IMG/VR virus record: IMGVR_UViG_3300021408_000010 | Coordinates: 1 to 44,406 of that record | DNA from: a virus | Taxonomy: Duplodnaviria; Caudoviricetes | Length of the DNA stretch: 44,406 nt | Reading direction: 5' to 3' (one strand) | In this document: one piece after another, positions 20,480-44,406 of the stretch | How the letters are laid out: each line of letters begins with the position of its first letter | Position numbering within the stretch: the first letter of the stretch is position 1 | Made by a program: the position numbers and the translations under genes | Notes under the pieces: model-generated | What the model was told of the DNA's origin: nothing | Databases searched by the model: none | The model's input: only the letters and a program-made list of their open reading frames with translations

Positions 20480-20875
20480 ATGGCTGTAACTCTACGTAAT
20501 AAGACGTATGACAAGCTGAAGCATGTAACTCAAGTGGTCCTGCCCGCGGTTGGCTCTCTATATTTCGGCCTTTCTGCAATCTGGGGACTTCCTGCCGGTG
20601 AAGAGGTGGTTGGTACGCTTGCGCTGCTGACGACTTTCGGTGGTGTTACGCTCCTCGTGAGTACCAAGAACTACAACCCGGATATTCCGGAATCTAATCC
20701 CAACTTTGCTGGGGATTTCATTGTCGACACCACGCCTGAGGGTAAGAAGGTCGTCCAGCTCGCTCTGGCACGCGATCCTCGGGATATTGTCGACAACGAG
20801 GCGCTCGTCTTCAGAGCGGTCGACACCAGCAAGGAAGAGCAGAACGAGCAGTTCTGGGATAATCCCGCGGAATAA
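20480..20875 (+). CDS. holin (Dp-1 family) with soluble C-terminal extension
   Basis: NKTYD.LK...QVVLPA.G.LYF.LS.IWGLP..EEVVGT...FGG..L.VST..YN; two TM segments. Confidence 0.8.
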   Translation: MAVTLRNKTYDKLKHVTQVVLPAVGSLYFGLSAIWGLPAGEEVVGTLALLTTFGGVTLLVSTKNYNPDIPESNPNFAGDFIVDTTPEGKKVVQLALARDPRDIVDNEALVFRAVDTSKEEQNEQFWDNPAE

Positions 20876-20891
20876 ACATCCTCTATAATGA
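20866..20891 (+). promoter_or_regulatory. repeated promoter-like motif, copy 1
   Basis: CGC-GGAATAA-ACA-TCCTC-TATAATGA, upstream of 20913. Confidence 0.75.
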
Positions 20892-20912
20892 GAGCATAGA
20901 GAGGATGCACTG

Positions 20913-21197
20913 ATGGTTAATATTTTCCAGAAGAACCCGTCCAAGCTCGACGAACCTATTGATAAGGTTCTGACTCGTATGAAGGACCTTGAGCCTGACT
21001 CCGAGGAGTACAAGAAGTTACTGACCACCCTAGACAAGTTGATGGAGCTGCAGAGCGAAGAGCAAAGCAGCCAATTCAGCCCGGATACGGTGCTCAATGT
21101 AGCGGGCAGTCTTCTGGAAGTCTTGCTCATCGTCGCATACGAGCAGAAGCACGTCATGGTGTCGAAGGGTCTTGGGCGATTTCGTCGGAATAAGTAA
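20913..21197 (+). CDS. hypothetical protein
   Basis: GAGG RBS; 94 aa between a motif copy and a long hairpin. Confidence 0.75.
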   Translation: MVNIFQKNPSKLDEPIDKVLTRMKDLEPDSEEYKKLLTTLDKLMELQSEEQSSQFSPDTVLNVAGSLLEVLLIVAYEQKHVMVSKGLGRFRRNK

Positions 21198-21220
21198 ACC
21201 GAAATAGTCCCCGATATGAA

Positions 21221-21278
21221 CGAAAACTCAGAAGCTGTGTGAGATGCAATACAATCCTGCATGGCTTCTGAGTTTTCG
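21221..21278. terminator. long inverted repeat, probable terminator
   Basis: CGAAAACTCAGAAGC (21221-35) / GCTTCTGAGTTTTCG (21264-78), perfect 15 bp, just after the 21197 stop. Confidence 0.65.
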
Positions 21279-21302
21279 CGGGATTTACATCGGATATAAA
21301 AA
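21277..21302 (+). promoter_or_regulatory. degenerate motif copy
   Basis: CGC-GGGATTT-ACA-TCGGA-TATAAAAA; same spacing, last bases differ. Confidence 0.5.
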
Positions 21303-21484
21303 ATTTGCGATTTTCCGAAAAAACACCCCTCTATATGGCTGTATAAGGGCCTCCAGAGGGTATAAATGGGTCATTATACCCGGTAGAGCACGAAACGTCT
21401 TAGAACGCGAAATAGAGCCCTATCCGGCTAAATGGGCATTTCTAATGTAAAAAATACCCGGGGGGAAGGTTTCTGAGAACAATT

Positions 21485-21510
21485 CGCTGTATTTACATGC
21501 CATATAATGA
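21485..21510 (+). promoter_or_regulatory. promoter-like motif, copy 2
   Basis: CGC-TGTATTT-ACA-TGCCA-TATAATGA. Confidence 0.8.
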
Positions 21511-21533
21511 GAACTAATCACAAAGGAGCCAAG

Positions 21534-21737
21534 ATGTTGAATCGACAGATCACGGTCGGCTTTGAGAAGAGCAAGAAGGACAAGACCATTTCTGATGACG
21601 GCTCCACAATCGAGATCCACTACGCTACGGCGCGGAAGGCTTTCGAGGGTGGTAGCCTGAAGATCATGAAGATGGTCGCTACCTACGTCGCTCTCGACAC
21701 CGCCCGAAAGGTTGTTGTTAACAGACTGTCCAAGTGA
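21534..21737 (+). CDS. hypothetical protein (67 aa)
   Basis: AAAGGAG RBS before ATG 21534; lies between a motif copy and a hairpin. Confidence 0.75.
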   Translation: MLNRQITVGFEKSKKDKTISDDGSTIEIHYATARKAFEGGSLKIMKMVATYVALDTARKVVVNRLSK

Positions 21738-21742
21738 TATTC

Positions 21743-21775
21743 AAAGCCTCGACCCCGCCAAGGGGTTTAGGTTTT
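21743..21775 (+). terminator. probable intrinsic terminator
   Basis: AAAGCCT-CG-ACCCC-GCCAA-GGGGT-TT-AGGTTTT hairpin after the stop. Confidence 0.55.
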
Positions 21776-21801
21776 CGCAACATTTACACGCCCTATAATG
21801 A
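21776..21801 (+). promoter_or_regulatory. promoter-like motif, copy 3
   Basis: CGC-AACATTT-ACA-CGCCC-TATAATGA. Confidence 0.8.
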
Positions 21802-21925
21802 GAGGGGGTAAGACACGAAGGTGTTGGGACGTTTCCCAACCTACCCGGTGGAGCACTGCTTGCGAGCATCCCATCAATCACGATTTTCGTTGGGTCGTGA
21901 ACCCTAGCCTCTCATTTTCTTTTTT
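21797..21925 (+). ncRNA. candidate stand-alone structured small RNA (~125 nt)
   Basis: Closing stem AATGAGAGG/CCTCTCATT, internal hairpins (GTTGGGA/TCCCAAC, TGCT/AGCA, TCACGAT/GTCGTGA), then a T-rich tract; own motif upstream; no ORF. Confidence 0.6.
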
Positions 21926-21940
21926 CGTTTTGGAGGCATA

Positions 21941-22198
21941 ATGACCAAATTTATAATTCGTCAACCGGCTGGTGAAAACACTAGATTTCATCGTACTGCT
22001 TTTGATAAGCAAGTCAACAAAGAAATCAGAGTCAATATGCCGAACGGCGATTCAACCATGGCTAAACTGATTTTCGCCGATGTTGCTGCGGACGGAACGT
22101 TCGTTGAACTTGGGTTTGAAACCGACGATTCAGGAGACGTAATCACTGGATTGATTGAATCGCATAACCACCACAAGGAGACTAACAATAATGCGTAA
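21941..22198 (+). CDS. hypothetical protein
   Basis: GGAGG RBS; 85 aa. Confidence 0.7.
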   Translation: MTKFIIRQPAGENTRFHRTAFDKQVNKEIRVNMPNGDSTMAKLIFADVAADGTFVELGFETDDSGDVITGLIESHNHHKETNNNA

Positions 22199-22838
22199 GT
22201 TGATGTTGATTCTGGCTCCGCTCATTCTGACGGCGTGTGTCGCATGCGAACCTACCCCACCCCCGTCCTATCCCGCGCAGCGTCCGGGCACAGTTCACTT
22301 CGAAGGTGATTCGGTGACCTGGAACACCTATTACGGGACCGGTGTTGCATATCCCGGTACATCCGGCGAATGGGCTCCGGGTAACCGCATTGACCTGAGC
22401 CCATGGGGTGGCGCGGGCATGGCTACTATTGATCGCCTGCCCAAGGATCTTGCCGCCGGTAAGGTCGACAAGCTTGTTTGGGGACTGGGTCTGAACGAGA
22501 TCGGTTCCCAGCATGAGTGGACCGTTAAGCATCAGCTGATGTGGTACGACATGCTCATCAATCATGTGCCCGAGGAAACCTGCATCGTCATGGTCCTTCC
22601 TTGGGTACTCCCCGCAGATTGGCCTAATCGCCCTCTGCAAGAGATCATGGATCTGCGAGTCTGGATCCAGAACCTTGCCATGGATCATCCGAACATCGTC
22701 TTGGTGGATTGGCGTCCCATCCTCGAGGCGAATCCTCATTTTTCTGCTGCGGACGGAGTCCACATCGACCCGGAAACGGGTGGGGCTGAGGCTCGAGATT
22801 CCATGTACCGCGGCGGGCTGGCGCACTGTGGACCCTAG
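22191..22838 (+). CDS. lipoprotein with SGNH/GDSL hydrolase domain
   Basis: Signal/lipobox MRKLMLILAPLILTAC(VAC); blocks GDSV, GLGLNE, DGVH; AAGGAG RBS before ATG 22191. Confidence 0.8.
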   Translation: MRKLMLILAPLILTACVACEPTPPPSYPAQRPGTVHFEGDSVTWNTYYGTGVAYPGTSGEWAPGNRIDLSPWGGAGMATIDRLPKDLAAGKVDKLVWGLGLNEIGSQHEWTVKHQLMWYDMLINHVPEETCIVMVLPWVLPADWPNRPLQEIMDLRVWIQNLAMDHPNIVLVDWRPILEANPHFSAADGVHIDPETGGAEARDSMYRGGLAHCGP

Positions 22839-22963
22839 GCACGACGACGATTGGAATAAGATGCAAACGGCTATCGTCGTTTTGATCTTTCTCGTCGGAG
22901 CTTTATATTTAACCCTTCTATATCACATTCAAGCCCCGTGGCTTTATAAATAAGGAGTTCGAC

Positions 22964-23218
22964 ATGAGCATTAATCTTCCGGACGACTTCGCGGAGAATC
23001 TTCAACAGATCGCAGCCACCTTTCGAGAGCTGGAGCGAACGATCCTCTTTGGATGGCCGCATAACGAATACCCCACCGAGACCGAAGCAAACACAATCGT
23101 TGCTGTCTGGCATGAGTTGTCGATGCAACATCATACCTGCGGCCTCGACGAATCCGAGCGTTGGTACCTCGCCGGTCAGATCGTTGCTAGGATCAAGCGG
23201 GATGTGAAGGTTGATTAG
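22964..23218 (+). CDS. hypothetical protein
   Basis: TAAGGAG RBS; 84 aa. Confidence 0.65.
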   Translation: MSINLPDDFAENLQQIAATFRELERTILFGWPHNEYPTETEANTIVAVWHELSMQHHTCGLDESERWYLAGQIVARIKRDVKVD

Positions 23219-23425
23219 ATGGCTGGGTACGTTGTCAGTTCAGAGACACACAGTGAGATACCCTTCAACCTAGGGGATCCAAACATCGTATCGACCATAG
23301 TGACACGTAGTGATGATCGACGCGTAATCACTCTTCAGCTTGACGGCGACGAACTAGCCGCCGCGCTGTGGGGGCTGAAGGAATACCGTAAACCACTATT
23401 TGATTGGGAGAATAATCATGCGTAA
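23219..23425 (+). CDS. hypothetical protein
   Basis: Abuts the upstream stop; 68 aa. Confidence 0.55.
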   Translation: MAGYVVSSETHSEIPFNLGDPNIVSTIVTRSDDRRVITLQLDGDELAAALWGLKEYRKPLFDWENNHA

Positions 23426-23540
23426 TAAGTATAAGTTCCGCAATTTCCTGTTCGACGCCTTCATGGTCTGCTTCACCAGCGGATTCTGGCTGATCTGGAT
23501 CTTCTGCCGCGAGTCCCGGGGTCGCCAGCGGTGTTTCTAA
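23418..23540 (+). CDS. small membrane protein (40 aa, not in ORF track)
   Basis: GGGAG RBS; MRNKYKFRNFLFDAFMVCFTSGFWLIWIFCRESRGRQRCF; one TM segment. Confidence 0.6.
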   Translation: MRNKYKFRNFLFDAFMVCFTSGFWLIWIFCRESRGRQRCF

Positions 23541-23836
23541 CCCCAGCATTTCAGGATGTCCTGTATTTCATGCAGGCCTGGAAGATCGTTAGCAAGTTCC
23601 GTGATATTCTCGATAACGAAAACATAGCTCCGCATTGGTTGAGAAAGGATCTGGGCAAGATCCACACTCTTATTCAATTTCATCGTTATTGGGAAGATTA
23701 TGTAAACAAAGCAACGAATAGCGTTCAAGAAAGAAAGTTCCTTAACGAAGAGGGAAGGAGATTGCTAGAGTTACTACTCCATGACAGTAGATATCGCGCT
23801 TTATCATGGGAGATGTGGAGGTCCGTTGAATGCTAG
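23531..23836 (+). CDS. hypothetical protein
   Basis: 101-aa ORF overlapping the previous stop; start uncertain. Confidence 0.45.
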   Translation: MFLTPAFQDVLYFMQAWKIVSKFRDILDNENIAPHWLRKDLGKIHTLIQFHRYWEDYVNKATNSVQERKFLNEEGRRLLELLLHDSRYRALSWEMWRSVEC

Positions 23837-23968
23837 CGTTTCGAAAGTTTCTCCACTTCATATATCTGTCGCATTCATTGGCTTCGATCCTGTATCGAGT
23901 TGATAACGCTAGTTCGGATCAGGCCGTGGAATGCAGTCCTGTGACTTGGGATACGAAAGCCCTATGGG

Positions 23969-24676
23969 ATGAGGATTATGAATCATATTCGTAAAGGGCT
24001 GAAAGAGAATTCCTCCCTGATTCTCACAGTGGGGACCGGCGTAGGGATTCTTACTACCGCATATTTGGCAGGCAAAGCTTCATTCGCAGCCGCCCGCGTG
24101 TTGGATAGAGAAGATCCTTATTTGGATCCACGAGAGAAGGTGAAGCTTGTCTGGAGACTCTACATCCCCACAGGTGCATCCGCAGCAGCTACAATTGTTT
24201 GTGTGGCCGGAGTCAGACACGTCGACGCCCGAAAGGTGTTGGCTGGACAGACAGCTCTTGCGGTGTCGCAACGAGCTTACGAAGGCTACCGCGAACAAGT
24301 CATCGCAGAGCTAGGCGATAAGAAGGATCAACTATTCGTCGCCAAGGCTACCGAGAAGCGCATCAACGAAGGTCCTCCGCCAGTCATTGTTGCTGGTTCA
24401 GGATCGGTCTTGTGTTACGAGGCTTACTCCGGTCGATACTTCATGAGCGACATGGAGACTCTTAATCGAGCCGTTAATGAGATTAATTCGAAGCTGAACA
24501 AGCACGACTACGCGACCCTGGACGACTTCTACTATCTGATTGATCTGGAAAACACCATGTCTTCCGGACAATCGGGTTGGGAATCCGCCAAACTTATGGA
24601 GCTCGAGTATTCGTCTGTGCTTCATAAGGGCAAGCCTTGTCTGGCATTCAGTTACAATTATGTAATGTCATTCTAG
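23969..24676 (+). CDS. conserved phage protein (DUF6353-like), paralog A
   Basis: N-terminal hydrophobic ILT.G..VG..TTAYLA; C-terminal N.IN..L.....L.DFY..L...GW, shared with 26043..26957. Confidence 0.7.
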   Translation: MRIMNHIRKGLKENSSLILTVGTGVGILTTAYLAGKASFAAARVLDREDPYLDPREKVKLVWRLYIPTGASAAATIVCVAGVRHVDARKVLAGQTALAVSQRAYEGYREQVIAELGDKKDQLFVAKATEKRINEGPPPVIVAGSGSVLCYEAYSGRYFMSDMETLNRAVNEINSKLNKHDYATLDDFYYLIDLENTMSSGQSGWESAKLMELEYSSVLHKGKPCLAFSYNYVMSF

Positions 24677-24677
24677 T

Positions 24678-24703
24678 CGCAGCATTTACACACCCTATAG
24701 TGA
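24678..24703 (+). promoter_or_regulatory. promoter-like motif, copy 4
   Basis: CGC-AGCATTT-ACA-CACCC-TATAGTGA. Confidence 0.75.
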
Positions 24704-24730
24704 GAAGTTCACTTTACAAGGAGAACTAAG

Positions 24731-24901
24731 ATGGATGACGAAATTGTTGTCACGGATACCGTTAGCGACGAAACGTCGTCGGTCCCGCATCAGCTCGGCA
24801 AGCATGTTGTCGGCGGCCTCGCCGCCTTCGCTGCTTCCAAGCTGGCGGACCGCGCTTACGACGCAACGCTCCGGGCCATTCGCAACCGCAGGTCTTCGTA
24901 A
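24731..24901 (+). CDS. small protein (56 aa, not in ORF track)
   Basis: AAGGAG RBS; MDDEIVVTDTVSDETSSVPHQLGKHVVGGLAAFAASKLADRAYDATLRAIRNRRSS; between a motif copy and a terminator. Confidence 0.7.
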   Translation: MDDEIVVTDTVSDETSSVPHQLGKHVVGGLAAFAASKLADRAYDATLRAIRNRRSS

Positions 24902-24916
24902 TACCAACTTCCACCC

Positions 24917-24946
24917 AAAGGGGGCCCTAACCGGGGCTTCCTTTTT
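24917..24946 (+). terminator. intrinsic terminator
   Basis: AAAGGGGGCCC-TAACC-GGGGCTTCCTTTTT. Confidence 0.7.
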
Positions 24947-24969
24947 GTCTCGATTGAAGAGGAAACGGA

Positions 24970-25410
24970 ATGCTTAAGCGAAATATCACGTACAAGGACT
25001 TCGAGGGCGACGTCCGAGATGAGATCCACTACTTCAACTTGACCGGCGCAGAGCTGGTTGAGATGGAAGTGTCGGAAGAGCAGGGTCTCGAGGCTGCTAT
25101 CAAGCGAATCGTCGCTGCTGGAGACAAGAAGCAGCTGATCCAGGAGTTCAAGAAGATCATTCTGGCTTCGTACGGCGAGAAGTCTGAGGACGGTCGCCAT
25201 TTCATGAAGTCGGATGAGATCCGGAATCGCTTCGCCTGCTCCGCCGCTTACAGTTCGTTGTTCTTGGACCTGGCTACGAACGAGGATGCGGGGGCCAAGT
25301 TCATCAAGGGCGTTCTCCCCGAGGAGTTTCTTGCCTCGCTCAAGGATCAGGACAAGCCGACGGGTCTGCCACGTATCGGCCCCAAGCCGCCCCTTCCCCC
25401 CAGCATCTAA
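24970..25410 (+). CDS. conserved hypothetical protein
   Basis: MLK..ITY.DF.G..R.E..YFNLT.AEL...YGEKSEDGR.F.KS; GAGG RBS. Confidence 0.75.
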   Translation: MLKRNITYKDFEGDVRDEIHYFNLTGAELVEMEVSEEQGLEAAIKRIVAAGDKKQLIQEFKKIILASYGEKSEDGRHFMKSDEIRNRFACSAAYSSLFLDLATNEDAGAKFIKGVLPEEFLASLKDQDKPTGLPRIGPKPPLPPSI

Positions 25411-25422
25411 TAAGGAGCCCAG

Positions 25423-26046
25423 ATGGATTATCAAGGGAATTCTAAGAAAGATAAAGAAGATAAGGTCATTCCGCCTAAGAAAAACCTTGAGAAGATCATC
25501 ACAGGCGAAGCTACTGTAAAGCAGAAGACCCTGGTCTCCAGAGCCAAGAACATTGTCTTTGGTGGGGATGCTAAGACAGCAGCTACCTACGTGGTTTCCG
25601 AGGTGCTACTGCCCGCGGTCCGAAACCTCGTCGTGGAGATGGTGTCAAAGGGCACTGATCGGCTCATGTACGGCGAGAACGCGTCCCGTCGGCGGACAGC
25701 TAGCTACGGCTCGAGGGTCTCATACAACAATCCGATTAACCGATCCACTCAGGGCCGGGGATATTTGCCGGATCAGAGACCCATTGATCGGTGGACTCAG
25801 GGGCGGAAGGCTTTCGATGACGTCATTCTCGCATCCAAGTCGGATGCTGAGGCTGTGGTCGAAGGGCTTATCAATATCGTCGATAAGTACGAAATTGCAT
25901 CTGTTGCCGACTTGTACGAGCTTCTAGGACTCCCTTCGAGTCATGTGGACAACAAGTGGGGATGGACGCACCTTTCGGGTGTCGACGTCCAACAGGTTCG
26001 AGAAGGTTATCAAATCTCGTTCCCACCTTTGGAGGAGATCTCATGA
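25423..26046 (+). CDS. conserved hypothetical protein
   Basis: TAAGGAG RBS; C-terminal ASVADLYEL.G......DNKWGWT. Confidence 0.75.
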   Translation: MDYQGNSKKDKEDKVIPPKKNLEKIITGEATVKQKTLVSRAKNIVFGGDAKTAATYVVSEVLLPAVRNLVVEMVSKGTDRLMYGENASRRRTASYGSRVSYNNPINRSTQGRGYLPDQRPIDRWTQGRKAFDDVILASKSDAEAVVEGLINIVDKYEIASVADLYELLGLPSSHVDNKWGWTHLSGVDVQQVREGYQISFPPLEEIS

Positions 26047-26957
26047 ACAAAGCAGTGATCAATGTGATCACCCGGAGGGCATTGCCCGCATTGACCCAGC
26101 GAGCCGGCCGTCAGAAGTTGGTTCTGAGGAAGCAGTCCCCGCATATCTTCTTCGCCGCGGGAGTTGTTGGTTCGGTTGCTAGTACGGTTCTGGCCTGCCG
26201 AGCCACCCTCAGCCTACCCGCAACCCTCGAGGAGATTGAGACGGACCTCGGGTATCTTCGGGAAATCAAGCAGGAACCACGCGTTATCGACGAAGGCTCT
26301 ACCACCCATTACACGGAGAAGGAGCTTCATCGGGACGCGTTCTATATCTACGTCAAAGCTGCCGGTAAGCTCGGTCGCTTGTATGGTCCTTCCGTCACAG
26401 TGGGCGTGCTTTCGCTCGCCGCGCTGACCGGATCTCATGTGACCATGGCTCGTCGTAATACTTCGCTCATGGCGGCATACGCTGCTGTGGCCAAGGCGTA
26501 CGACGACTACCGCGGGCGAGTTGCGACCGAGCTTGGTGCGGAGAAGGAGCGCGATCTCTATCACGCCAAGGTGTCCGCTAACACCAACGAGCAGGGTGAT
26601 GAAGTTGCTGTCGTAGACTCCAACAGATGGTCCCCATATGCGAAGTTCTTTGACGAGACTTCACCGAACTGGGAAAAGCATGCCGAGTTTAACCGACTGT
26701 TCCTTGTGTGCCAGCAGAACTACGCAAATGATATTCTGCAAGCCCGAGGTCATCTGTTTCTGAACGAAGTGTACGACATGCTCGGGATCGAACGGACGCA
26801 AGCAGGAGCCGTTGTCGGTTGGGTCATCAGTAAGAAGGGTGATAACTTCGTTGACTTCGGTATGTACGAAGCAGTTAGTGCCCAATTCATCAACGGCTGG
26901 GAGCCTCGTGTCATCCTAGATTTTAATGTTGATGGCGTCATCTACGACAAGATCTAG
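26043..26957 (+). CDS. conserved phage protein (DUF6353-like), paralog B
   Basis: GGAGGAG RBS before ATG 26043; SP.I....GVVG....VLACRAT and GHLFLNEVYDMLG...GW...LDFNVDG. Confidence 0.75.
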   Translation: MNKAVINVITRRALPALTQRAGRQKLVLRKQSPHIFFAAGVVGSVASTVLACRATLSLPATLEEIETDLGYLREIKQEPRVIDEGSTTHYTEKELHRDAFYIYVKAAGKLGRLYGPSVTVGVLSLAALTGSHVTMARRNTSLMAAYAAVAKAYDDYRGRVATELGAEKERDLYHAKVSANTNEQGDEVAVVDSNRWSPYAKFFDETSPNWEKHAEFNRLFLVCQQNYANDILQARGHLFLNEVYDMLGIERTQAGAVVGWVISKKGDNFVDFGMYEAVSAQFINGWEPRVILDFNVDGVIYDKI

Positions 26958-26966
26958 GAGAGGACC

Positions 26967-27821
26967 ATGAAGCAGCAACTTAAGAATCTGACACATGATC
27001 CTTATACGCTAGGCCCCGCGATGTTCATTGCTGGGTTCGGTGTGGGATATGTTGTTCATAATCTCCGCATCAAGAAGATGCTCGCCAACCTCGAGGTCAC
27101 GGAGACATTTGTCGAAGAGACGATCATTGATGTCGAGATCGAGGCCGGCGAAGAGGAATCAGACTTCGACACCAAGGAGTATCTCGCCGCGGGGTTCGCT
27201 CGAGCGATCGAGGAAGCATCTGAGCGTCATCCGTCGAATGCGTCCATCTTCGGAGACGTCGGTACTATCGTCGAACGAACGGAAAAAACTGCTCTCGAGA
27301 AGCTCCAGGTCGATGTTCCGATGGAGGACGTGCAGCGTCTCGTGCTCGTCCCTAAGTCGAATCTTACTGTGGCTGACGATGGTACGCTGACAGTCACTGC
27401 GGATCCCGAGCCGGAGATGACCGGATACGACGACATCGAGTGGGATCAGGAAGTCGAAGAGGAGAACCGTTCCGCGGATGCTCCGTACGTCATCCATCTT
27501 GAGGAGTGGCATTCTAATGAATCTAACTTTAGCCAAGAGGATCTGGTGTATTATGCAGGTGATGACATCCTGTGTGATGCGGCACAGAACACGCCGGTGT
27601 ACAACCCTGGGCCAGTCGTAGGAGACCTGGAGTTCGGACGCGGTTCCGGTAACTCGGAAGTCGTGTTCGTCCGTAACGAGGCTCTACGAGCTGAGTACCA
27701 GATCACTCGAGTCTCCGATAGCTATCAGACCGTCATGTTTGGTATCGAAGCCGAAGAGGCCGCGGAGGCAGAGGATCTTCGGCATTCGGCCCAAATCAGG
27801 CGTTTCCGTTCGGTGGATTAG
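26967..27821 (+). CDS. acidic hypothetical protein with N-terminal TM segment
   Basis: 284 aa; FIAGFGVGY; C-terminal PYVI...L.YY..DDIL.D...VFVRN. Confidence 0.7.
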   Translation: MKQQLKNLTHDPYTLGPAMFIAGFGVGYVVHNLRIKKMLANLEVTETFVEETIIDVEIEAGEEESDFDTKEYLAAGFARAIEEASERHPSNASIFGDVGTIVERTEKTALEKLQVDVPMEDVQRLVLVPKSNLTVADDGTLTVTADPEPEMTGYDDIEWDQEVEEENRSADAPYVIHLEEWHSNESNFSQEDLVYYAGDDILCDAAQNTPVYNPGPVVGDLEFGRGSGNSEVVFVRNEALRAEYQITRVSDSYQTVMFGIEAEEAAEAEDLRHSAQIRRFRSVD

Positions 27822-27823
27822 CC

Positions 27824-28360: not shown

Positions 28361-28371
28361 GAGGGAGGGCC

Positions 28372-32115: not shown

Positions 32116-32124
32116 GGAGTATTA

Positions 32125-32845: not shown

Positions 32846-32996
32846 ATACACAGTAACCTTTGTGGATGGTAAGACTCGCACGATCCAGGTCGCCAATCTA
32901 ATCTCAAACCATCTTGGGCAACCCCTCATGTTGGTCGCGGAGGACGGATGGATGTACAACTTCAACACGATCATCGGACTTAAAAGGAAGGCCTAA
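32829..32996 (+). CDS. small protein (55 aa, not in ORF track)
   Basis: AAGGAG RBS; MIPEGKYTVTFVDGKTRTIQV...GLKRKA; fills the gap before 32999. Confidence 0.55.
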   Translation: MIPEGKYTVTFVDGKTRTIQVANLISNHLGQPLMLVAEDGWMYNFNTIIGLKRKA

Positions 32997-32998
32997 CC

Positions 32999-33475
32999 AT
33001 GGCATATAGTGAAGCCAAAACATTCATGGTCGAAAACGCGGATATCATCTTCCGTAATTTCGAGGGTCGGGAAGGACCCATGAATACCAAGGGACAGCGA
33101 AATTTCTGCGTGTTCCTTGATCCGGAAGTCGCTCTCGAGATGATCGAGGATGACTGGAACGTCAAGTACCTTACGGCTCGCGAGGAAGGCGAGGAAGACC
33201 GACCTTACATCCAGGTGTCCGTGGGGTACAAGACCCGGCCCCCGCGTATCGTCCTGATCTCTTCGACCGGTCGTACACACCTGACCGAAGAGAATGTCGA
33301 AATATTGGATGTTGTCGACACGTCCATGGTCGATTTGATCGCCCGTGGATACGACTGGACAGTCAACGGTAAGAGCGGGACGAAGGCATACGTGCAGTCC
33401 ATGTTCGTGACCCTAGAAGAAGATGCTCTCGAGCGTAAGTACGCCGTTATTGAGGAGGCTGATGATGGGGAGTAA
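32999..33475 (+). CDS. putative single-stranded DNA-binding protein
   Basis: IIFRNFEG...RNFCV; beta-rich with an acidic C-terminus (EEADDGE); downstream of the polymerase. Function inferred. Confidence 0.55.
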   Translation: MAYSEAKTFMVENADIIFRNFEGREGPMNTKGQRNFCVFLDPEVALEMIEDDWNVKYLTAREEGEEDRPYIQVSVGYKTRPPRIVLISSTGRTHLTEENVEILDVVDTSMVDLIARGYDWTVNGKSGTKAYVQSMFVTLEEDALERKYAVIEEADDGE

Positions 33476-33716
33476 CAATCCGATGAGTCAGGCGAAGAAG
33501 GCTGAGGTTCGAGAGCTCTTCGAGGACAATCTTCGTGAGCGAGTGGCGGCATGGACACAGGCCTGCTTGGCCGTAGACAAGCTTGTAGCCGAACATGGTG
33601 TCAAGTCCTACGACCTTGGCGGACCACTGAACAGAATCACCCGAGTCACTGAGCTCGATCAGCACATCGACAACATTATCCGAGTGGCCGACTGGCTTCT
33701 CGACAATCCGGAATAA
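33465..33716 (+). CDS. hypothetical protein
   Basis: GAGGAGG RBS; overlaps the upstream stop. Confidence 0.55.
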   Translation: MGSNNPMSQAKKAEVRELFEDNLRERVAAWTQACLAVDKLVAEHGVKSYDLGGPLNRITRVTELDQHIDNIIRVADWLLDNPE

Positions 33717-33864
33717 ATCAATGGTCGATGTGACATTGGTCAGATGTTCTTGTGGTAAGAAAATGATTTATTCTAATGCGTCCACTTCTGACCATACGGG
33801 TATCGTCCATTCTTCTACTTACCAGTGTTATGACCTAGCTGCTTCACTAAGTAAGGGATCCAAA

Positions 33865-34215
33865 ATGGAATTCATCACGCACGTCCGCAAGCCTTTCGTC
33901 GTTCAGGCGATCGAGATCACTGCCGACAACATCGAGGAGATCGCGCGATACGTCGGTGATCTGGAGCACAAGGAAGATGGGACTCCCTACATCCTTGTGG
34001 ACCGTCGCAAGGTCCCGAATGTGGCTCGAGTGTACCCGGGCTTCTTCATGACCAAGATGGGTGAGCACGTCCGCGTGTACTCCCGCAAGATCTTCAGCGA
34101 GCAGTTCATGCTCAAGGACGAGACAGTCCAGCCATGGCTGGACTTCCTGGACGGCAAGAAGACGGACATGGACGGTCCGACTGCCGATGAGCCCGAGGAG
34201 TTCAACCGCCGATGA
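33865..34215 (+). CDS. hypothetical protein
   Basis: AAGGG before MEFITHVRKP; the ORF extends upstream to 33721. Confidence 0.6.
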   Translation: MEFITHVRKPFVVQAIEITADNIEEIARYVGDLEHKEDGTPYILVDRRKVPNVARVYPGFFMTKMGEHVRVYSRKIFSEQFMLKDETVQPWLDFLDGKKTDMDGPTADEPEEFNRR

Positions 34216-34607
34216 TGGAGCCAGAGGATACGGGCAAGGAGTCCCGGGAGCCTATCGATTTCGAGGGGTTCTCGACCCAGAAGGACCTGCCCGTTGGCGA
34301 TTTCCGTGAGCGGCCTATTCGGAGCAACCTTGTCGAAGTCACAGTGGCCTGCCCTGAGTGCCATGGTATGAACCGCCGGGCCAAGCGCGCGTGCGATACC
34401 TGCGATGGCGCAGGGGTCGTGAAGAAGGTCGTCACTCAGGACGAGATCACCGGGGAGGACCCGCTCAACTGTGATAAGTGGGGCGAGGTCGACTTCGGTC
34501 TGGGCCCTGTACTAATTCGATGCACACAGTCGGGCGAGCATGACGAGCATGGTTGCACCGTCATCTTTGAGGAGGATGAGGAGGAACCCGATCCTAATCT
34601 GAACTAA
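34212..34607 (+). CDS. Zn-finger protein (DnaJ-type CxxCxG repeats)
   Basis: CPECHG...CDTCDGAG plus a second Cys/His cluster. Confidence 0.6.
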   Translation: MMEPEDTGKESREPIDFEGFSTQKDLPVGDFRERPIRSNLVEVTVACPECHGMNRRAKRACDTCDGAGVVKKVVTQDEITGEDPLNCDKWGEVDFGLGPVLIRCTQSGEHDEHGCTVIFEEDEEEPDPNLN

Positions 34608-34609
34608 TT

Positions 34610-34635
34610 CGCGAAAAAAACACAGGGTATAATGA
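34610..34635 (+). promoter_or_regulatory. promoter-like motif, copy 5
   Basis: CGC-GAAAAAA-ACA-CAGGG-TATAATGA; heads a non-coding structured tract. Confidence 0.8.
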
Positions 34636-34706
34636 AGGAGAGTGTGTATGCTGGCTAACGCCAGAGACGCGCTAGTTCGCGAACGGCATACTCTTCTTCT
34701 CTTTTC
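34634..34706 (+). ncRNA. candidate three-way-junction small RNA
   Basis: 14-bp closing stem GAAGGAGAGTGTGT/GCATACTCTTCTTC enclosing CTGGC-TAAC-GCCAG and CGCG-CTAGTT-CGCG; pyrimidine tract follows. Confidence 0.55.
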
Positions 34707-34722
34707 TGTTTTGGCCGGTGCC

Positions 34723-34850
34723 ACGGACGGCCCCCGGAACAGAAAATTCTTCAGCATGCTAAGAACCTCCGCCAAGGGATTCTTACTGTCTGCGGGAGTG
34801 GACTAACCCACCTGGGTCCGACTCTGTCAGGCCATTCTGAAGCCAACCGT
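34723..34850 (+). ncRNA. candidate multibranch structured RNA
   Basis: ACGG..GGC/GCC..CCGT closing; ACAG/CTGT, TTCTT/AAGAA, GAGTGGAC/GTCCGACTC and TCAGG/TCTGA helices. Confidence 0.45.
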
Positions 34851-34854
34851 TCTT

Positions 34855-34972
34855 GGGGGTATGCAATGGAGCCATTAAGCGCGGAGTCCCAGCAATGCGT
34901 TTAAACTTCTTGGCTGAGTCTGGTGAGCTCGGCATCCAGGAGAGCCGGTATTCGAAGCCGGGTACCCCCACC
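34855..34972 (+). ncRNA. tRNA-like (non-canonical) RNA
   Basis: 8-bp acceptor-like GGGGGTAT/GTACCCCC then ACC; T-arm CCGGT-ATTCGAA-GCCGG; arm TAAGCGC/GCGTTTA with 14-nt loop; long extra arm TTCTTGG/CCAGGAG. Confidence 0.6.
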
Positions 34973-35006
34973 TTTCCCGATCAACCCTTCAACACAAGGA
35001 ATGCTA

Positions 35007-35231
35007 ATGCAGACTCATTTCACTCTTACTTCCCCTGCCGGGCATTTCATCTTTCCGCTGGGGACAGTCCGAAGCAAGGCCAAGGTTGTTCGTGATGCGG
35101 TGACGGCTGGTAGTCGAGGGGCAATCCCTCATACGCCTCGTCCGCGTCCGGACAACGTCATGACCTGGTTCAAGAATCACGTCGCTGGGCCCGTTTCCGG
35201 CGAGATCACTTTCGAGTGGATCAAGGCTTAG
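35007..35231 (+). CDS. hypothetical protein
   Basis: AAGGA RBS; MQTHFTL...; the upstream part of ORF 34923 overlaps the RNA structure. Confidence 0.6.
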   Translation: MQTHFTLTSPAGHFIFPLGTVRSKAKVVRDAVTAGSRGAIPHTPRPRPDNVMTWFKNHVAGPVSGEITFEWIKA

Positions 35232-35243
35232 GAGGCCTACAAA

Positions 35244-35549
35244 GTGCTTAAGTACGAGATCACCTACGCCGCTGGCGAGGGTGCGCCGAAGACCGAGACC
35301 GTGGAATGCGACTTCGTTCAGCCCCCGGTTGAAGACAATGGTTGTCAGATCCAGTTCTACGTCGCGGCCGCATCAGGCCAGGCGGATCGCTTGGTGAAGC
35401 AGGTCAACCCTTCGGCCATCATCAAGATGGACCTTGTCCAGGGCGTCGAAGCCAAGAACGTCTTCGATCAGGTGTTCGATGGAGAGGATCCCTTGGCCGC
35501 GGAAGCGTTCGGCTTCGATGACAAGCGCGAGCAGCTGAGGAGCGAGTGA
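35244..35549 (+). CDS. hypothetical protein
   Basis: AGGAGG RBS, GTG start, strong codon bias. Confidence 0.7.
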   Translation: MLKYEITYAAGEGAPKTETVECDFVQPPVEDNGCQIQFYVAAASGQADRLVKQVNPSAIIKMDLVQGVEAKNVFDQVFDGEDPLAAEAFGFDDKREQLRSE

Positions 35550-35758
35550 TGGGCAAGCACACGACCAACACCGGAACTGGCGCCAAGCGTTCACGTTCGC
35601 GTCGGGATTCTCTCATGCAGCCGAAGCCTGATCAGTCCAAGTACCTGCGCAGGGCGCATGTGCGTCTCGAGAAGCGGCAGGCGGCGTGGGATGCGCTTCC
35701 GCTGGATAAGAAGCAGAAGACCACTCGTCCTGGTTGCATGAAGATGCGAACCAACTGA
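35546..35758 (+). CDS. small basic protein
   Basis: GAGGAG RBS; K/R-rich, 70 aa. Confidence 0.6.
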   Translation: MMGKHTTNTGTGAKRSRSRRDSLMQPKPDQSKYLRRAHVRLEKRQAAWDALPLDKKQKTTRPGCMKMRTN

Positions 35759-35906
35759 TGGGACGGGGACAGGAAGTAGAGATCCGTACACCTGAGGACC
35801 GCCCCTTCCCTTGGCGACCCCAGGACAACGGTCACATCACTGGTACTCCCACTCCGGAGCCGCCTAAGGATGACGGCATCAGTATCTGGCCGCGATAGGA
35901 GTCCGC

Positions 35907-36116
35907 GTGATTGTTATCGATCTAATCTGGTGGGCGGTGTGGGAGATCACCAAAGCGATTGGTTGGGTTGGGTGGATGATCATTGTTGTTATCCTGAACA
36001 TCATCGTGGGTATCATCAACCTCACCTTCTCGGTCATCTTCTCGCTTATGGGGTTGGACAAGAAGTCCGGCACACTCAAGGGCGTCAAGACCACGGCAAA
36101 AGGTAAGCGAAAGTAA
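35907..36116 (+). CDS. small membrane protein
   Basis: AGGAG RBS, GTG start; long hydrophobic segment and basic tail. Confidence 0.6.
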   Translation: MIVIDLIWWAVWEITKAIGWVGWMIIVVILNIIVGIINLTFSVIFSLMGLDKKSGTLKGVKTTAKGKRK

Positions 36117-36120
36117 GTCT

Positions 36121-36990
36121 AGGATGCTACCTGGCACGCTTATAGTTAGCTAAGGTACTGGCTGGTAACAAAGTCAGCCCATCCTTTGATCGTCCCCTTG
36201 CTTACGGCAAAGCGCTGGCTCTCGTTGAGGCGCGCCTGAGTGGCCTGATCAGTCACAAATAGCGAGAGTTATGTCGGTTCGAGTCCGGCCGAGGGGAACT
36301 TTGTTAGTGGGGACAGCGTGGGTCCGCCTCTTAAATGAGGGCGAAGCGTTTCGTCAGAGAAGAATGCCAGCGAGGCTCAAGGTTGTTAGTCAACACGGCG
36401 CTACACCCGTCGAAATGTGTCAACAATCTAGCAGCGTCCGGGGATAGCCCTTCGAGGTTAGCCTCAGTGGAGGTAAAGGCCCGGATTAACCTGTCAAGCA
36501 TGGAGATAGCTAGGCATTGCAGCGATTACCCACTACCTCGTCTGAGCGAGGCTAAATAGTTTTTAGGCTCAGAGCGTCAGGTGCTAGAGGCGAGGGCTCC
36601 ACATCGAGCGAGTCCCTTGTAGTTCTACAGTCTGTATCCAGTACCACGGACATAAAAACGTCGGCAGTGGCTTAAGGACGTCAGACCACCTGGGTAAGCG
36701 GAGAAGGTACTCCGAAACTCTCATGCGCATAGCGCTGCACGTGTGAGAGAGGGACAAAAAACCGGCATCGTTCATGATCTTAACTGGGCCTCTGGTCGAG
36801 TTAAGGGAAGAGGGGTTAAGACCGTTCCAATCTTAGCTTCCTTGTTATGGGTGGAATCCATAACGCGATGTGTCAGGTATGCAGGTTCTTCTATAGTTGA
36901 GAGATTAAATGTAGGGAGTTAAACCTCAGCCTGCACGCCATCACCTCGGGGAGGGTCGGTCGAGTCCGCCGAACTTGGCCTGCCCTCCCC
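36121..36990 (+). ncRNA. large ornate non-coding RNA or tandem ncRNA array (~870 nt)
   Basis: No credible gene; back-to-back closed domains with many G-U pairs on the + strand (details in findings). Confidence 0.65.
36193..36300 (+). ncRNA. tRNA-like element with canonical T-arm
   Basis: TCCCCTTG/CGAGGGGA acceptor-like stem; GTCGG-TTCGAGT-CCGGC T-arm; 12-bp helix TGGCTCTCGTTG/TAGCGAGAGTTA in place of the anticodon arm; no CCA. Confidence 0.65.
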
Positions 36991-37021
36991 TACCTAAGGT
37001 CTCCAACAGAAGAGAGTAAAC

Positions 37022-37381
37022 ATGAAGCGAATCATGCGGCTGGTTGCTGCTGTGGCTATCGTGGTCGGCCTGTTCGGGGCGGTCGCGGTTGTGGAGGTTG
37101 CTGATGCACCTCCCGCCAGCGCGCACAACCAGGACAACTACTCGTACTGGTACTGCTCGGCCCATCGGTCGAACGTCAACATGACCGTGATCCACTCCAA
37201 GGTCTACGGCCTGTGGCCCGGTCAGATCGGCTACTACTGCCGCGAGGACTTCTTCGGCGTCAGCTTCCAGTACTGGGTGATCGTTCAGCCCCCGGGCAGC
37301 AACTTCAGCTACATGCCTTGGGGCCGGCAGAAGTGCAACCCTGGCGGGATCGTCTGGTGCGAGGAGCCTGGTCCCTGGTGA
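37022..37381 (+). CDS. secreted Cys/aromatic-rich protein
   Basis: Sec signal MKRIMRLVAAVAIVVGLFGAV...PPASA; four Cys; many Y/W. Confidence 0.75.
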   Translation: MKRIMRLVAAVAIVVGLFGAVAVVEVADAPPASAHNQDNYSYWYCSAHRSNVNMTVIHSKVYGLWPGQIGYYCREDFFGVSFQYWVIVQPPGSNFSYMPWGRQKCNPGGIVWCEEPGPW

Positions 37382-37392
37382 CCTGAGTAAAA

Positions 37393-37424
37393 GAGAAGGC
37401 CCTTTAACCGGGGCTTTCTTTTTG
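37393..37424 (+). terminator. intrinsic terminator
   Basis: AGAAGGCCTT-TAACC-GGGGCTTTCT-TTTT. Confidence 0.75.
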
Positions 37425-37447
37425 CGTTAACATAGAGGAGACTTATC

Positions 37448-37768
37448 ATGCAACTAGCCGAGTTCTGCAAGAAGACAGGTGCGAGTCCTAAGCAAATTCA
37501 CTATTGGAACCGTGTCGGGATTGTCATGACGCGTAGTCGTTGGATCGGTCGTAACGATCGCTTCCGCGACTACGACGAGACCTTGATCCCTAAGGTTCAT
37601 CTGCTGGTGACCATCTCGTGGAAGATGGGTGGATGGTTCTCGGTGGATACACTGCTAGCGATCTGGGAGAACTACGAAGAGGAGAAGCTCGACCTTGGGG
37701 ACGGAGTAATCTTGGAATGGAGAACTAATGCTCGAGTTGATGTCGCATCAGAAAGATGCACTCGATAA
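37448..37768 (+). CDS. MerR-like HTH protein
   Basis: LAEFCKKTGASPKQIHYW...R...FRDYD; GAGGAG RBS. Confidence 0.65.
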   Translation: MQLAEFCKKTGASPKQIHYWNRVGIVMTRSRWIGRNDRFRDYDETLIPKVHLLVTISWKMGGWFSVDTLLAIWENYEEEKLDLGDGVILEWRTNARVDVASERCTR

Positions 37769-38927
37769 TCTGGATAATGGTAGAATCCTTTACGGGGGTG
37801 TTGGGAGTGGTAAGTCGGCTACGGCCATGGCTTACTACATGAAGCGGGAGAACCCAAAGGACATCTATGTCATCACCACAGCAAAGAAGAGAGATAGCCT
37901 TGAGTGGCTCGGAGAAGCTGCTCATTTCGGAATTGGAACGTCGACAGATAGCACGGTTGGTGGCGTGCTTAGGATTGATTCGTGGAACAACATTGGAAGC
38001 TACCTCGATATTGAAGGAGCTTTCTTCATCTTTGACGAACAAAGACTTGTCGGACATGGCGCTTGGGTTAAGTCATTCCTCCGAATTGCTGCGCGAAACA
38101 AGTGGATTATGCTTAGTGCAACTCCTGGAGATGCGTGGCTTGATTACGCGCCAGTCTTCATAGCCAACGGTTGGTACAAGAACATGACCGAGTTCAAGCG
38201 TCGTCATGTGATCTACGCGCCTTACATCAAGTTCCCTAAGATCATTGGGTATATTGGGGAGGATGTGTTAGATCGCTATCGTAATGAGATCTTGGTTGAG
38301 ATGCCATACCTCAAACACACCGAGCGTATGGTGAACTACCTTGAGGTGGGATACGACAAGGCGCTTGTGAAGAAGCTACAAGTAGAGAGATGGAACCATG
38401 TGGAGAATCGTCCTATCAAAGATGTTGCGGAGCTGTGGCGCCTTACTCGTATGGTTGTCAACAGTCATGGATCGCGCTGCAATACGATTCGCGGACTACT
38501 CAAATTCCACCAGAGATTGATAGTCTTCTACAACTTCGATTATGAGTTGGAGATACTGAGAGAGTTGGGAGATCGGCATGAAGTGTTTGAGTGGAACGGT
38601 CATAAGCACGACGAGGTTCCTACTTCGGACAGCTGGGTATATCTTGTGCAGTATACTGCTGGGTCTGAAGGCTGGAATTGCATAAGCACTGACGCTATGG
38701 CCTTCTATTCGCTCACATATTCGTACAAAAACTTTGCCCAAGCGCAAGGACGAATCGACAGATTGAACTCCCCATACACGGTTTTGTACTACTACGCGCT
38801 CCAAAGTGGGGCCTATATCGACTCGGCACTTAGGTTAGTACTTGCCGGGAAGAAATCCTTTAATGAGCGGGTTGGGCTTCAAGAATGGGAGAAAAGTGGG
38901 TTTTCTGGCACTTATCCGGCACTTTAA
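37728..38927 (+). CDS. SF2 DNA helicase
   Basis: L..HQ, GGVGSGKS, FDEQ, LSATP, GSEGWN, QAQGRIDR. Confidence 0.88.
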   Translation: MLELMSHQKDALDNLDNGRILYGGVGSGKSATAMAYYMKRENPKDIYVITTAKKRDSLEWLGEAAHFGIGTSTDSTVGGVLRIDSWNNIGSYLDIEGAFFIFDEQRLVGHGAWVKSFLRIAARNKWIMLSATPGDAWLDYAPVFIANGWYKNMTEFKRRHVIYAPYIKFPKIIGYIGEDVLDRYRNEILVEMPYLKHTERMVNYLEVGYDKALVKKLQVERWNHVENRPIKDVAELWRLTRMVVNSHGSRCNTIRGLLKFHQRLIVFYNFDYELEILRELGDRHEVFEWNGHKHDEVPTSDSWVYLVQYTAGSEGWNCISTDAMAFYSLTYSYKNFAQAQGRIDRLNSPYTVLYYYALQSGAYIDSALRLVLAGKKSFNERVGLQEWEKSGFSGTYPAL

Positions 38928-39140
38928 ATAAAAGTGCCGGGGGGTTTGCCGGTGATGTGCCGGGCTCTGACCTGGGGAAATAAGCTTTTTTGTACATATA
39001 GGCATTTATATACCTCTTAAAGTATATAGAAAAATAGGTTGTATATAGATTGTTACATATTACGTATAGTTCATATACAAGGTGAGTTTTCATAGAAAAG
39101 TTTTTATGGGGGTAAAAAGCGCCTAAGTGCCGGGAAGGGG
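38905..39140. other. candidate replication origin
   Basis: Inverted repeat CCGGCACTTT/AAAGTGCCGG, repeated GTGCCGGG, and a strongly AT-rich TATA-rich intergenic core. Confidence 0.45.
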
Positions 39141-39145
39141 TAAAA

Positions 39146-39640
39146 ATGGCCGATAATGAGTTTCACGGGATACTTGAGGAGTTCCCTAGCTATACCATTA
39201 GCAACTATGGCACTGTGACTAATTCATACGGACAGATCATGACACACTCTCGCACCGCGCACGGAGAACACACGGTTGGGTTAATGAGGAACGGCCGTCA
39301 GTATCGACGTTCGGTCAAGGTTCTTGTCGCCCGCGCTTTCGTAGACGGAGAGACAGAGATCTTCGACACACCCATTCTTCTAGACGGTGACCGAGGAAAT
39401 CTCCACACAAGTAATCTTGCTTGGCGCCCGCGTTGGTTCGCCCTTGCTTATCAGAAACAGTTCGATCAAATAGAAGATTGGTGGTATGCCGGTCCTGTGG
39501 TTGATGACGCCCAAGGCATAACATACGAAGATATCTTCTCTGCGGCTATGGAAACCGGCAGCTTGGTAAGACATATAAGGTTGGGGATGTTGAATCGAGA
39601 AAGAGTATTCCCAACGGGCGCACTCTTTAGATTTAGTTGA
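39146..39640 (+). CDS. NUMOD4/HNH-like protein, probably degenerate nuclease
   Basis: Y.ISNYG.V, V.L...G......V..LVA.AF, DGDR.N....NL.W; usual catalytic His residues not evident. Confidence 0.65.
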   Translation: MADNEFHGILEEFPSYTISNYGTVTNSYGQIMTHSRTAHGEHTVGLMRNGRQYRRSVKVLVARAFVDGETEIFDTPILLDGDRGNLHTSNLAWRPRWFALAYQKQFDQIEDWWYAGPVVDDAQGITYEDIFSAAMETGSLVRHIRLGMLNRERVFPTGALFRFS

Positions 39641-39653
39641 TAATATACAACCA

Positions 39654-39679
39654 CGCGCCTCGTACATGTTGTATAATGA
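39654..39679 (+). promoter_or_regulatory. promoter-like motif, copy 6
   Basis: CGC-GCCTCGT-ACA-TGTTG-TATAATGA. Confidence 0.75.
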
Positions 39680-44317: not shown

Positions 44318-44406
44318 TTCGTGAGTGGACACGACGGTTCGTCGGGGTCCCTTTCCTTCTTTAAAAGGGGGAGGGGGGTCTCGCGAATCGTACCCCCCCT
44401 ATGCAT

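Follow-up and report, generated by a model that had tools for sequence, protein, structure and literature searches.

Intergenic motifs of 50 bp and 43 bp have been described in the Gordonia cluster DJ phages Vardy and Conley, where their TATAAT was read as a sigma-70 -10 box and no link was drawn to a phage polymerase (PMC9671010, PMC10868162). Phage Vardy has eight copies of the motif considered here within the central region concerned, so the Vardy/Conley element is very probably the same one. In the Arthrobacter cluster AU phage Giantsbane a 32-bp repeat has been read as a recombination boundary; six copies of our motif flank genes 37-41, where that paper puts six repeats, and the two are probably identical. 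The Giantsbane text does not contain the word "promoter" (bioRxiv 2020.01.10.891226).

The putative RNA polymerase of phages 1706 and FP_oengus and of the actinophage supercluster belongs to the same family as the enzyme discussed below, with a DxDGD motif and helix-turn-helix (HTH) domains at both ends, and the available sections of the reports class it as one of five YonO-like families (bioRxiv 842583, PMC2919709). No promoter is named for it (bioRxiv 842583 does not use the word), and the available sections describe no assay of its activity. According to the sections available, Thermus phage P23-45 has two single-chain two-barrel enzymes, the virion protein gp96 and the non-virion protein gp64, whose mapped starts are preceded by promoter motifs specific to them (bioRxiv 2022.12.01.518664). 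Our polymerase model matches gp64 structurally, but an HTH-flanked layout and a three-box motif distinguish it from the P23-45 enzymes, and its sequence has no match among PDB chains. YonO of Bacillus prophage SPbeta, as far as its report was accessible, is likewise a single two-barrel chain of ~100 kDa and is DNA-dependent; it transcribes late genes from one start with the promoter sequence left open (PMC5467207), whereas here many copies head non-structural genes. In our literature search, which covered openly available main texts, the motif was nowhere ascribed to the 1706-family polymerase, and it goes unmentioned in the accessible parts of PMC5513430, PMC13313380, PMC7302621, PMC5883640 and PMC13432834.

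The window, by which we mean the whole 44,406-nucleotide stretch analysed, is a complete cos-ended siphophage genome of the Lactococcus 1706 / FP_oengus / actinophage BI-AU-DJ lineage. A preliminary description had reported six copies of CGC-N7-ACA-N5-TATARTGA and a degenerate seventh, all on the + strand, and had proposed them as promoters for the phage RNA polymerase. All six exact copies were found again (Table 1), against none in 100 dinucleotide shuffles, and the copy at 21277 was the sole addition when up to two mismatches were allowed (shuffles: mean 0.19, largest 2). With a matrix built from 537 sites of relatives, these seven copies of the 26-base motif, six exact and one decayed, score 19.3-35.3 bits; the next-best site in the window reaches 9.6 bits, and the peaks in 20 shuffled windows lie at 6.6-15.6. 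The virion-gene arm (1-20.8 kb) has no copy. As had also been described, a small gene or structured RNA follows every full copy: small ORFs in four cases and folded RNAs ending in U-tracts in two. A counterpart of the copy at 39654 stands at the equivalent place in both Giantsbane and FP_oengus. A palindrome-like element of the kind that precedes the copy at 21485 occurs at 16 of 696 motif sites, in 12 of them at a distance of 23-26 bp.

Table 1. Coordinates of the motif copies and associated features in the window
Feature	Position	Strand	Remarks
Palindrome-like element	5..27	+	just right of cos; resembles that at 21449-21472
DUF7211 protein	4700..5059	+	before terminase gene
Motif copy 1	20866..20891	+	overlaps holin gene end; heads 94-aa ORF 20913-21197 (phrog_5818)
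Decayed motif copy	21277..21302	+	from scan at <=2 mismatches
Palindrome-like element (A-run, CCGG core, T-run)	21449..21472	+	centre 25 bp before CGC of copy 21485
Motif copy	21485..21510	+	heads ORF ending 21737
Terminator-like hairpin	21751-21767		closes ORF ending 21737; adjoins next motif copy (21776)
Motif copy	21776..21801	+	heads small RNA A
Small RNA A	21798..21920	+	~120 nt, multi-stem; fold z -2.36
Motif copy (TATAGTGA)	24678..24703	+	heads 56-aa ORF 24731-24901, then hairpin and U-tract
Motif copy	34610..34635	+	heads small RNA B
Small RNA B	34634..34705	+	~70 nt; fold z -3.25
Motif copy	39654..39679	+	heads last gene run
Last gene run	after motif copy 39654	+	111-aa ORF, endonuclease, exonuclease, RNA polymerase, 80-aa gene
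Putative single-chain two-barrel RNA polymerase	41408..44059	+	881 aa; phrog_4291
80-aa gene	44075..44317	+	phrog_4303; follows polymerase gene; in 42/47 relatives
Right genome end	44381..44406	+	TCGC, A-rich run, ACC, TATGCAT in motif register, ending at cos cut

Across 211 unique sites the core reported earlier stands, but its width was underestimated: the motif also includes a T before CGC (82%), a purine after CGC (91%) and an A/T-rich run before ACA. Fourteen of the 26 bases are fixed while the spacers vary, and among the fixed bases are purines directly after TATAAT, unlike a discriminator. The commonest form keeps a perfect TATAAT, as do five of the six full copies in the window. The -12T and -11A of a sigma-70 box, present in the window copies, are lost in the variant CTTTATGG, which retains CGC and ACA, and also in the CTTTATGR, CTTAATAG and TTTAATGA copies of relatives. 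FP_oengus has nine copies of the CTTTATGG variant, and 23 of the 33 contigs with this variant encode the full polymerase. Taken together, the phages that carry the motif infect Streptomyces, Arthrobacter, Gordonia, Lactococcus and Faecalibacterium, hosts from two phyla.

Motif and polymerase travel together in both directions, a check that the preliminary description had suggested. The polymerase was found in 59 of 65 searched motif-bearing contigs of at least 40 kb (45 of the 47 that are at least 90% complete), against a background of 250 of 50,697 phage records for the family, which is also found in 888 protein clusters at E <= 1e-30. Conversely, the motif was present in 23 of the 25 contigs with a polymerase gene, on one strand per genome (a reversed control gave 2 matches), and two polymerase-bearing contigs rated complete have no match to the relaxed motif pattern. 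Contig G025 was rejected as a counter-example, since it stops after the helicase gene, short of the polymerase's place; G029, the other complete-looking contig without a polymerase, has a single motif copy. Co-occurrence of this kind cannot single out the polymerase among the lineage's core genes, of which the 80-aa gene (42/47) is another.

The putative polymerase has a DFDGD motif, N-terminal HTH domains, a C-terminal HTH and an N-terminal HxG...WG peptide, and its DxDGD catalytic loop (D509-D513) is invariant in 48 aligned homologs. Structural matches of its model (mean pLDDT 79.9) include QDE-1 at E 5.4e-10, P23-45 gp64 at E 2.9e-7, RDR2 and phi14:2 gp66; the top TM-scores are low (~0.3), and the predicted structure supports a two-barrel fold. 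For the N-terminal 190 residues Foldseek gave no match at E <= 0.001 and only weak winged-helix matches. Profiles of sigma-70 region 4 hit the HTHs of 46 of 76 homologs at E <= 0.01, with the protein of the window itself below the curated cut-off, and it is plausible that these tandem HTHs read CGC and ACA.

Two folded RNAs help to place the transcription start. The closing stem of small RNA A takes in the last motif bases, and the RNA is kept in relatives, with compensatory change in 12 of 22 pairs (8 sequences). The closing stem of small RNA B begins at the G of TATAATGA, and in relative L170 a different outer stem begins at the same G. Neither RNA has a family in Rfam, and a MIR1523 match at 21210-21293, far below its cut-off, is simply a long hairpin. 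More generally, counting box positions with the first T as 0, the closing stems of downstream small RNAs (non-redundant, n = 87) begin at positions 4-11 in 55 cases (3-12 in the shuffled control) and at 12-14 in 4. These figures come from refined stem tests; a first, cruder one was discarded, as U-tracts swamped the signal. The stem end tracks the box variant (position 6 for TATAATGA, 7 for TATAATAG), and in 25 of 51 stems a U at position 5 is paired with A, but a G at position 4 is paired with C in just 2 of 15. Of 398 Shine-Dalgarno sites, 47 have their first base ahead of position 12, and none has it ahead of position 6. From the stems and ribosome-binding sites we infer that transcription starts inside TATAATGA, and TATAAT would then likely span the start site instead of sitting at -10.

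In a sigma-70 or sigma-A promoter the -10 box follows a -35 hexamer at 16-18 bp, RNA begins some 7 bases beyond the final T of TATAAT, and -12T and -11A are conserved. The motif family departs from this on each count, with the start judged from the stems. In agreement with the earlier observation that no standard -35/-10 pair is present, none of the seven copies is among the listed sigma-70 -35/-10 pairs, there is no -35 signal in the 211 sites, and sigma-70 scans of the window gave matches at shuffle level. Leaderless starts at the sigma-70 position were considered and rejected, as 3 of 210 sites have an ATG at positions 11-13.

Two-way co-occurrence, conservation across two phyla, the two-barrel fold and a start unlike that of sigma-70 all support the original proposal, and we consider it likely that the motif is the promoter of the phage's own single-chain polymerase for early genes, with RNA begun inside TATAATGA. 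By reading it the enzyme would transcribe small non-structural genes, small RNAs and the run of genes to which its own gene belongs. RNA would start at the 5th to 7th box base, most likely TATA^ATGA; TATA would be melted at -4 to -1, with ACA at about -12 to -10 and CGC, one helical turn from it, at about -22 to -20, and the HTH domains are predicted to recognise both without a host sigma. T7-type promoters are alike in mode, being phage-specific, one-strand repeats with a TATA melted just before a purine start, but the T7 enzyme is one of the right-hand polymerases, which are unrelated to the two-barrel type, and its promoter is contiguous rather than three spaced boxes.

The leading alternative, which we consider unlikely, makes the motif a promoter for the host primary sigma that consists of just a -10 box and is assisted by a phage activator or host factor on CGC and ACA. 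The perfect TATAAT boxes and the published reading for cluster DJ fit it, use of the host enzyme would explain how the polymerase is first expressed, and most motif sites are compatible with a sigma-70 start as well, because 351 of 398 Shine-Dalgarno sites lie at position 12 or beyond. Against this, the RNA stems start upstream of the sigma-70 start, the variants drop -12T/-11A while keeping CGC and ACA, and the fixed purines after TATAAT do not resemble a discriminator. The preliminary description had left room for an activator working with host sigma; that option is weakened, as the only other Pfam-flagged HTH protein, which is MerR-like, occurs in 1 of 47 relatives and was rejected as a family-wide activator.

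Next, and improbable in our view, the start could lie inside the box with another conserved phage protein as the reader, acting with the host core or as an obligatory specificity subunit. The 80-aa product is a possible polymerase cofactor and its gene is nearly as common as the polymerase, but Pfam shows no sigma or HTH domain in it, whereas the polymerase's own HTHs resemble sigma-70 region 4. YonO's need for extra factors is left open in the accessible part of its report (PMC5467207), and a distant polymerase homolog (P0147) has no match to the first 110 residues or to the C-terminal HTH, both of which leave some room for such a reader.

That the motif is mainly a recombination boundary shuffling gene cassettes, as the available text on cluster AU proposes for the 32-bp repeat (bioRxiv 2020.01.10.891226), is very unlikely. 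Fixed bases among variable spacers fit protein readout better than homology, lone copies stand at the heads of gene runs, and both RNA stems and ribosome-binding sites lie in phase with the motif. The decayed copy at 21277 does resemble a deletion join: judged from the layout of relative G085, it seems to unite an intact copy's left half with a degenerate copy's right half, the intervening small-RNA cassette having been lost. Recombination is more plausibly a by-product of promoter copies, in that each promoter-gene-terminator unit would form a cassette and adjacent copies could recombine, dropping the one between. Least credible is an operator at which the HTH-bearing protein represses or shuts off transcription: many records do annotate the polymerase as an HTH DNA-binding protein, but the motif is asymmetric and one-stranded and immediately follows terminators, and the cassettes show no other evident promoter.

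Two weaker leads concern the genome end and the virion. The right-end look-alike (Table 1) is a candidate late promoter or terminase site; 17 of 36 cos contexts have CGC at this offset, as does phage 1706. There are hints that the polymerase may be packaged in the virion: its N-terminal peptide weakly resembles that of DUF7211 proteins (E 0.2-11), and a portal-polymerase fusion exists elsewhere; our literature search found no virion proteomics bearing on the polymerase. Extrapolating from these sequence features, one may tentatively and with considerable doubt picture a widespread two-phylum lineage with sigma-free transcription, in which one 100-kDa two-barrel polymerase, packaged into the virion by means of an N-peptide that small head-module proteins also have, would use its own HTHs on a three-box promoter and start in TATAATGA, and late genes would be served by a variant promoter whose end coincides with the cos cut, which would allow late RNA only across sealed ends.

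To judge from the literature searched, what is new here is the assignment of the motif to the phage polymerase; the motif itself has been published before, under the sigma-70 -10 reading and probably also under that of a recombination repeat. If the assignment is true, the two-barrel polymerases of the 1706 family gain a first promoter and a first predicted start site, and the published sigma-70 reading is corrected. Sigma-less promoter finding by a single-chain relative of cellular RNA polymerase would become directly testable, and the pair might be developed into a compact, orthogonal means of gene expression in actinomycetes and gut Firmicutes.

All seven motif copies reported in the preliminary description, six full copies of CGC-N7-ACA-N5-TATARTGA and one decayed, were recovered at their positions on the + strand. 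The exact pattern has no matches in shuffled sequence and the pattern with two mismatches at most two, and a matrix built from 537 sites of relatives finds the same seven sites in the window and nothing else above the shuffle level. The motif is a real element. None of the seven copies is paired with a -35 box, in agreement with the view that this is not a standard -35/-10 promoter, and copies do precede small genes and structured RNAs as claimed, heading promoter-gene-terminator cassettes and small RNAs. Further copies head the run toward the DNA polymerase and the run holding the RNA polymerase; the first 20.8 kb of the window (lysis, head and tail genes) contain none.

In the related contig G085 the counterpart of the 21277 site is intact and heads a small RNA, and a degenerate copy follows. 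The window copy combines the left half of the intact site with the right half of the degenerate one, so recombination between motif copies seems likely, a side effect compatible with the Giantsbane preprint (bioRxiv 2020.01.10.891226), whose accessible part gives a motif-like repeat a recombination reading. The non-coding block separating the decayed copy from the promoter that follows is conserved in G085. A palindrome-like element lies right of cos and, in many relatives, also 23–26 bp upstream of one promoter copy; it is possibly a common binding site of some dimeric protein.

The putative polymerase matches 250 of 50,697 phage records; these 250 come from Arthrobacter, Gordonia, Streptomyces, Lactococcus, Curtobacterium, Rhodococcus, Microbacterium and Faecalibacterium phages, the closest being Streptomyces phages (~57%). 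The accessible parts of two earlier reports describe the family as a putative polymerase (bioRxiv 842583; PMC2919709). A DFDGD loop is invariant in the homologs; of 76 examined for N-terminal domains, 61 match HTH_23 there and 46 match sigma-70 region 4 (E <= 0.01). The structure model (mean pLDDT 79.9, pTM 0.65) matches QDE-1 (E 5.4e-10) and P23-45 gp64 (2.9e-7), both with TM-scores near 0.3, and phi14:2 gp66 (5.8e-4). The contigs G090, G100, G103 and G106 carry, separate from the full gene, ORFs of ~195–220 aa that match polymerase residues 518–619 only.

An estimated 2,300 IMG/VR stretches match the exact pattern, part of them by chance, as extrapolated from 166 loci in 4 of the 64 parts of the database. 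At 211 unique sites, conservation extends beyond the search pattern, with T ahead of CGC in 82%, a purine behind CGC in 91%, A/T ahead of ACA and purines past the box. Motif and polymerase were supposed to co-occur, and they do: taking from the 166 loci one per contig of at least 40 kb (69, 65 of them searched), the polymerase is present in 59 of 65, and in 45 of the 47 that are at least 90% complete. Among the misses, G025 ends before the polymerase's place and G029 has a single motif copy. Nor is the motif absent from polymerase-bearing relatives, since 23 of 25 contigs searched (from 31 polymerase-selected contigs of at least 40 kb; two of the 25 are also in the motif-selected set) carry the relaxed pattern, on one strand per contig (control, 2 matches). 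Named phages have 2 (Scap1), 1 (1706), 9 (FP_oengus), 11 (Giantsbane) and 8 (Vardy) copies; in 1706, 12 sites retain ACA-N5-TATARTRR, mostly with CAC in place of CGC.

The FP_oengus form, CGC-N7-WCA-N5-YTTTATGR, is without the two bases most needed by sigma-70. For CTTTATGG, the first 80 of 126 loci gave 33 contigs of at least 40 kb, with the full polymerase in 23, a weak partial match only in 2 and none in 8; in some genomes TATAATGA copies are mixed with CTTTATGA or CTTAATAG copies. What is invariant across variants is CGC, the ACA box and their spacing, not TATAAT.

With the first T of TATAAT numbered 0, a sigma-70 start is expected near position 12. ORF-less sites were folded from -20 to the first U-tract and the outermost G-C pair recorded; 74 of the 123 closing stems begin at 4–11 and 4 at 12–14, and with similar RNAs removed 55 of 87 begin at 4–11 (3–12 stems do so when the 3′ arm is shuffled). 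Stem starts peak at 6 for TATAATGA and 7 for TATAATAG, tracking the G. The U at position 5 is paired with an A in 25 of 51 stems; for position 2 the figure is 3 of 51. The closing stems of RNAs A and B in the window extend into the box. Shine-Dalgarno sites begin before position 12 in 47 of 398 cases and never before 6, the other 351 being compatible with a sigma-70 start as well; in phage 1706 they often adjoin the box. Stems and Shine-Dalgarno sites thus point indirectly to a likely transcription start at position 4–6. TATA^ATGA is the likely best placement, because all collected variants have a purine at position 4, a purine the collecting patterns themselves demanded.

The element is already in print under other readings, and the open-access literature yielded no paper assigning it to this polymerase. 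The published reading is host sigma (PMC9671010, PMC10868162), here with an activator; it conflicts with both the inferred start and the variants, the candidate activator, a MerR-like protein, occurs in only 1 of 47 relatives, and we consider it quite improbable. Perfect TATAAT copies may be used by the host enzyme as well. That another conserved phage protein is the reader is also quite improbable; co-occurrence cannot tell the 80-aa gene after the polymerase (42 of 47 relatives) from the polymerase itself.

Most likely, on this sequence evidence, the phage polymerase reads the motif and starts within the box. It is predicted to bind CGC (~-21) and ACA (~-11) on one DNA face via its HTH domains, and would then melt the A/T box and initiate on a purine within it, and the copy ahead of its own gene run would give positive feedback. 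The motif would then work like the phage-specific promoters of T7, and those of P23-45 are alike in the accessible part of their description; the tests made here speak against a sigma-70 promoter.

The RNA-A family (~115–125 nt, directly under a promoter; also at L006, L039, L056, L156, L311, L326 and L693 in relatives) matches no Rfam family, and 12 of its 22 predicted pairs show compensatory changes. In relatives, many promoter-headed RNAs (L145, L164, L010, L015, L068) resemble degenerate tRNAs whose outer stem starts in the motif. The hairpin-rich stretch holding the Pistol ribozyme and the tRNA-Ile call has several blocks conserved in the loci L170 and L172. The gap 3′ of the helicase gene is a candidate replication origin from its sequence, and the long antisense frame is probably a codon-bias shadow.

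Features of the window and their coordinates
Feature	Position	Strand	Remarks
Palindrome-like element	5-27; 21449-21472		first copy just right of cos
Ligase-like ORF	392-865		stand-alone
670-codon open frame	8037-10049	-	antisense to protease-capsid gene; no family match
Non-coding block	21300-21480
RNA A	21798-21920
RNA B	34634-34705
Hairpin-rich stretch	~35750-37000		1.3 kb; tRNA-like pieces
tRNA-Ile call	36218-36297
Pistol ribozyme	36536-36595		41.7 bits; also in G085
A/T-rich gap	38900-39145		several GTGCCGG / CCGGCAC words
Putative RNA polymerase	41408-44059	+

The window is a complete linear genome: its first bases are those found after the cos overhang in relatives, and its last bases those found before it. 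At its right end TCGC, an A-rich run, AC and T-N-T stand in the motif register and stop at the cos cut; in a register picked after viewing the sequence, CGC lies at -18 in 17 of 36 cos contexts and is at most one base away from there in another 4. The phage 1706 cos end likewise has CGC, and there the C-run, which is the pairing partner of the G-run, is mostly missing. This element could tentatively be a late promoter, or else it may be a terminase site or an RNA hairpin.

The polymerase begins with an HxG...WG peptide. When its profile (94 of 150 homologs) was run against 2,660 ORFs, five of the 11 best matches outside the polymerases were DUF7211-like head-module proteins, each non-significant (E 0.2–11), and the homolog P0147 (1789 aa) is fused to a portal protein. 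Among other fusions, P0152 carries a ~1,000-aa region without known identity, and P0129 and P0136 a 2′-5′ RNA-ligase-like domain, of which the window has a stand-alone counterpart. The open-access literature yielded no virion proteomics bearing on packaging. We regard it as conceivable, at somewhat under an even chance, that the polymerase is packaged in the virion; this, if true, would account for first expression.
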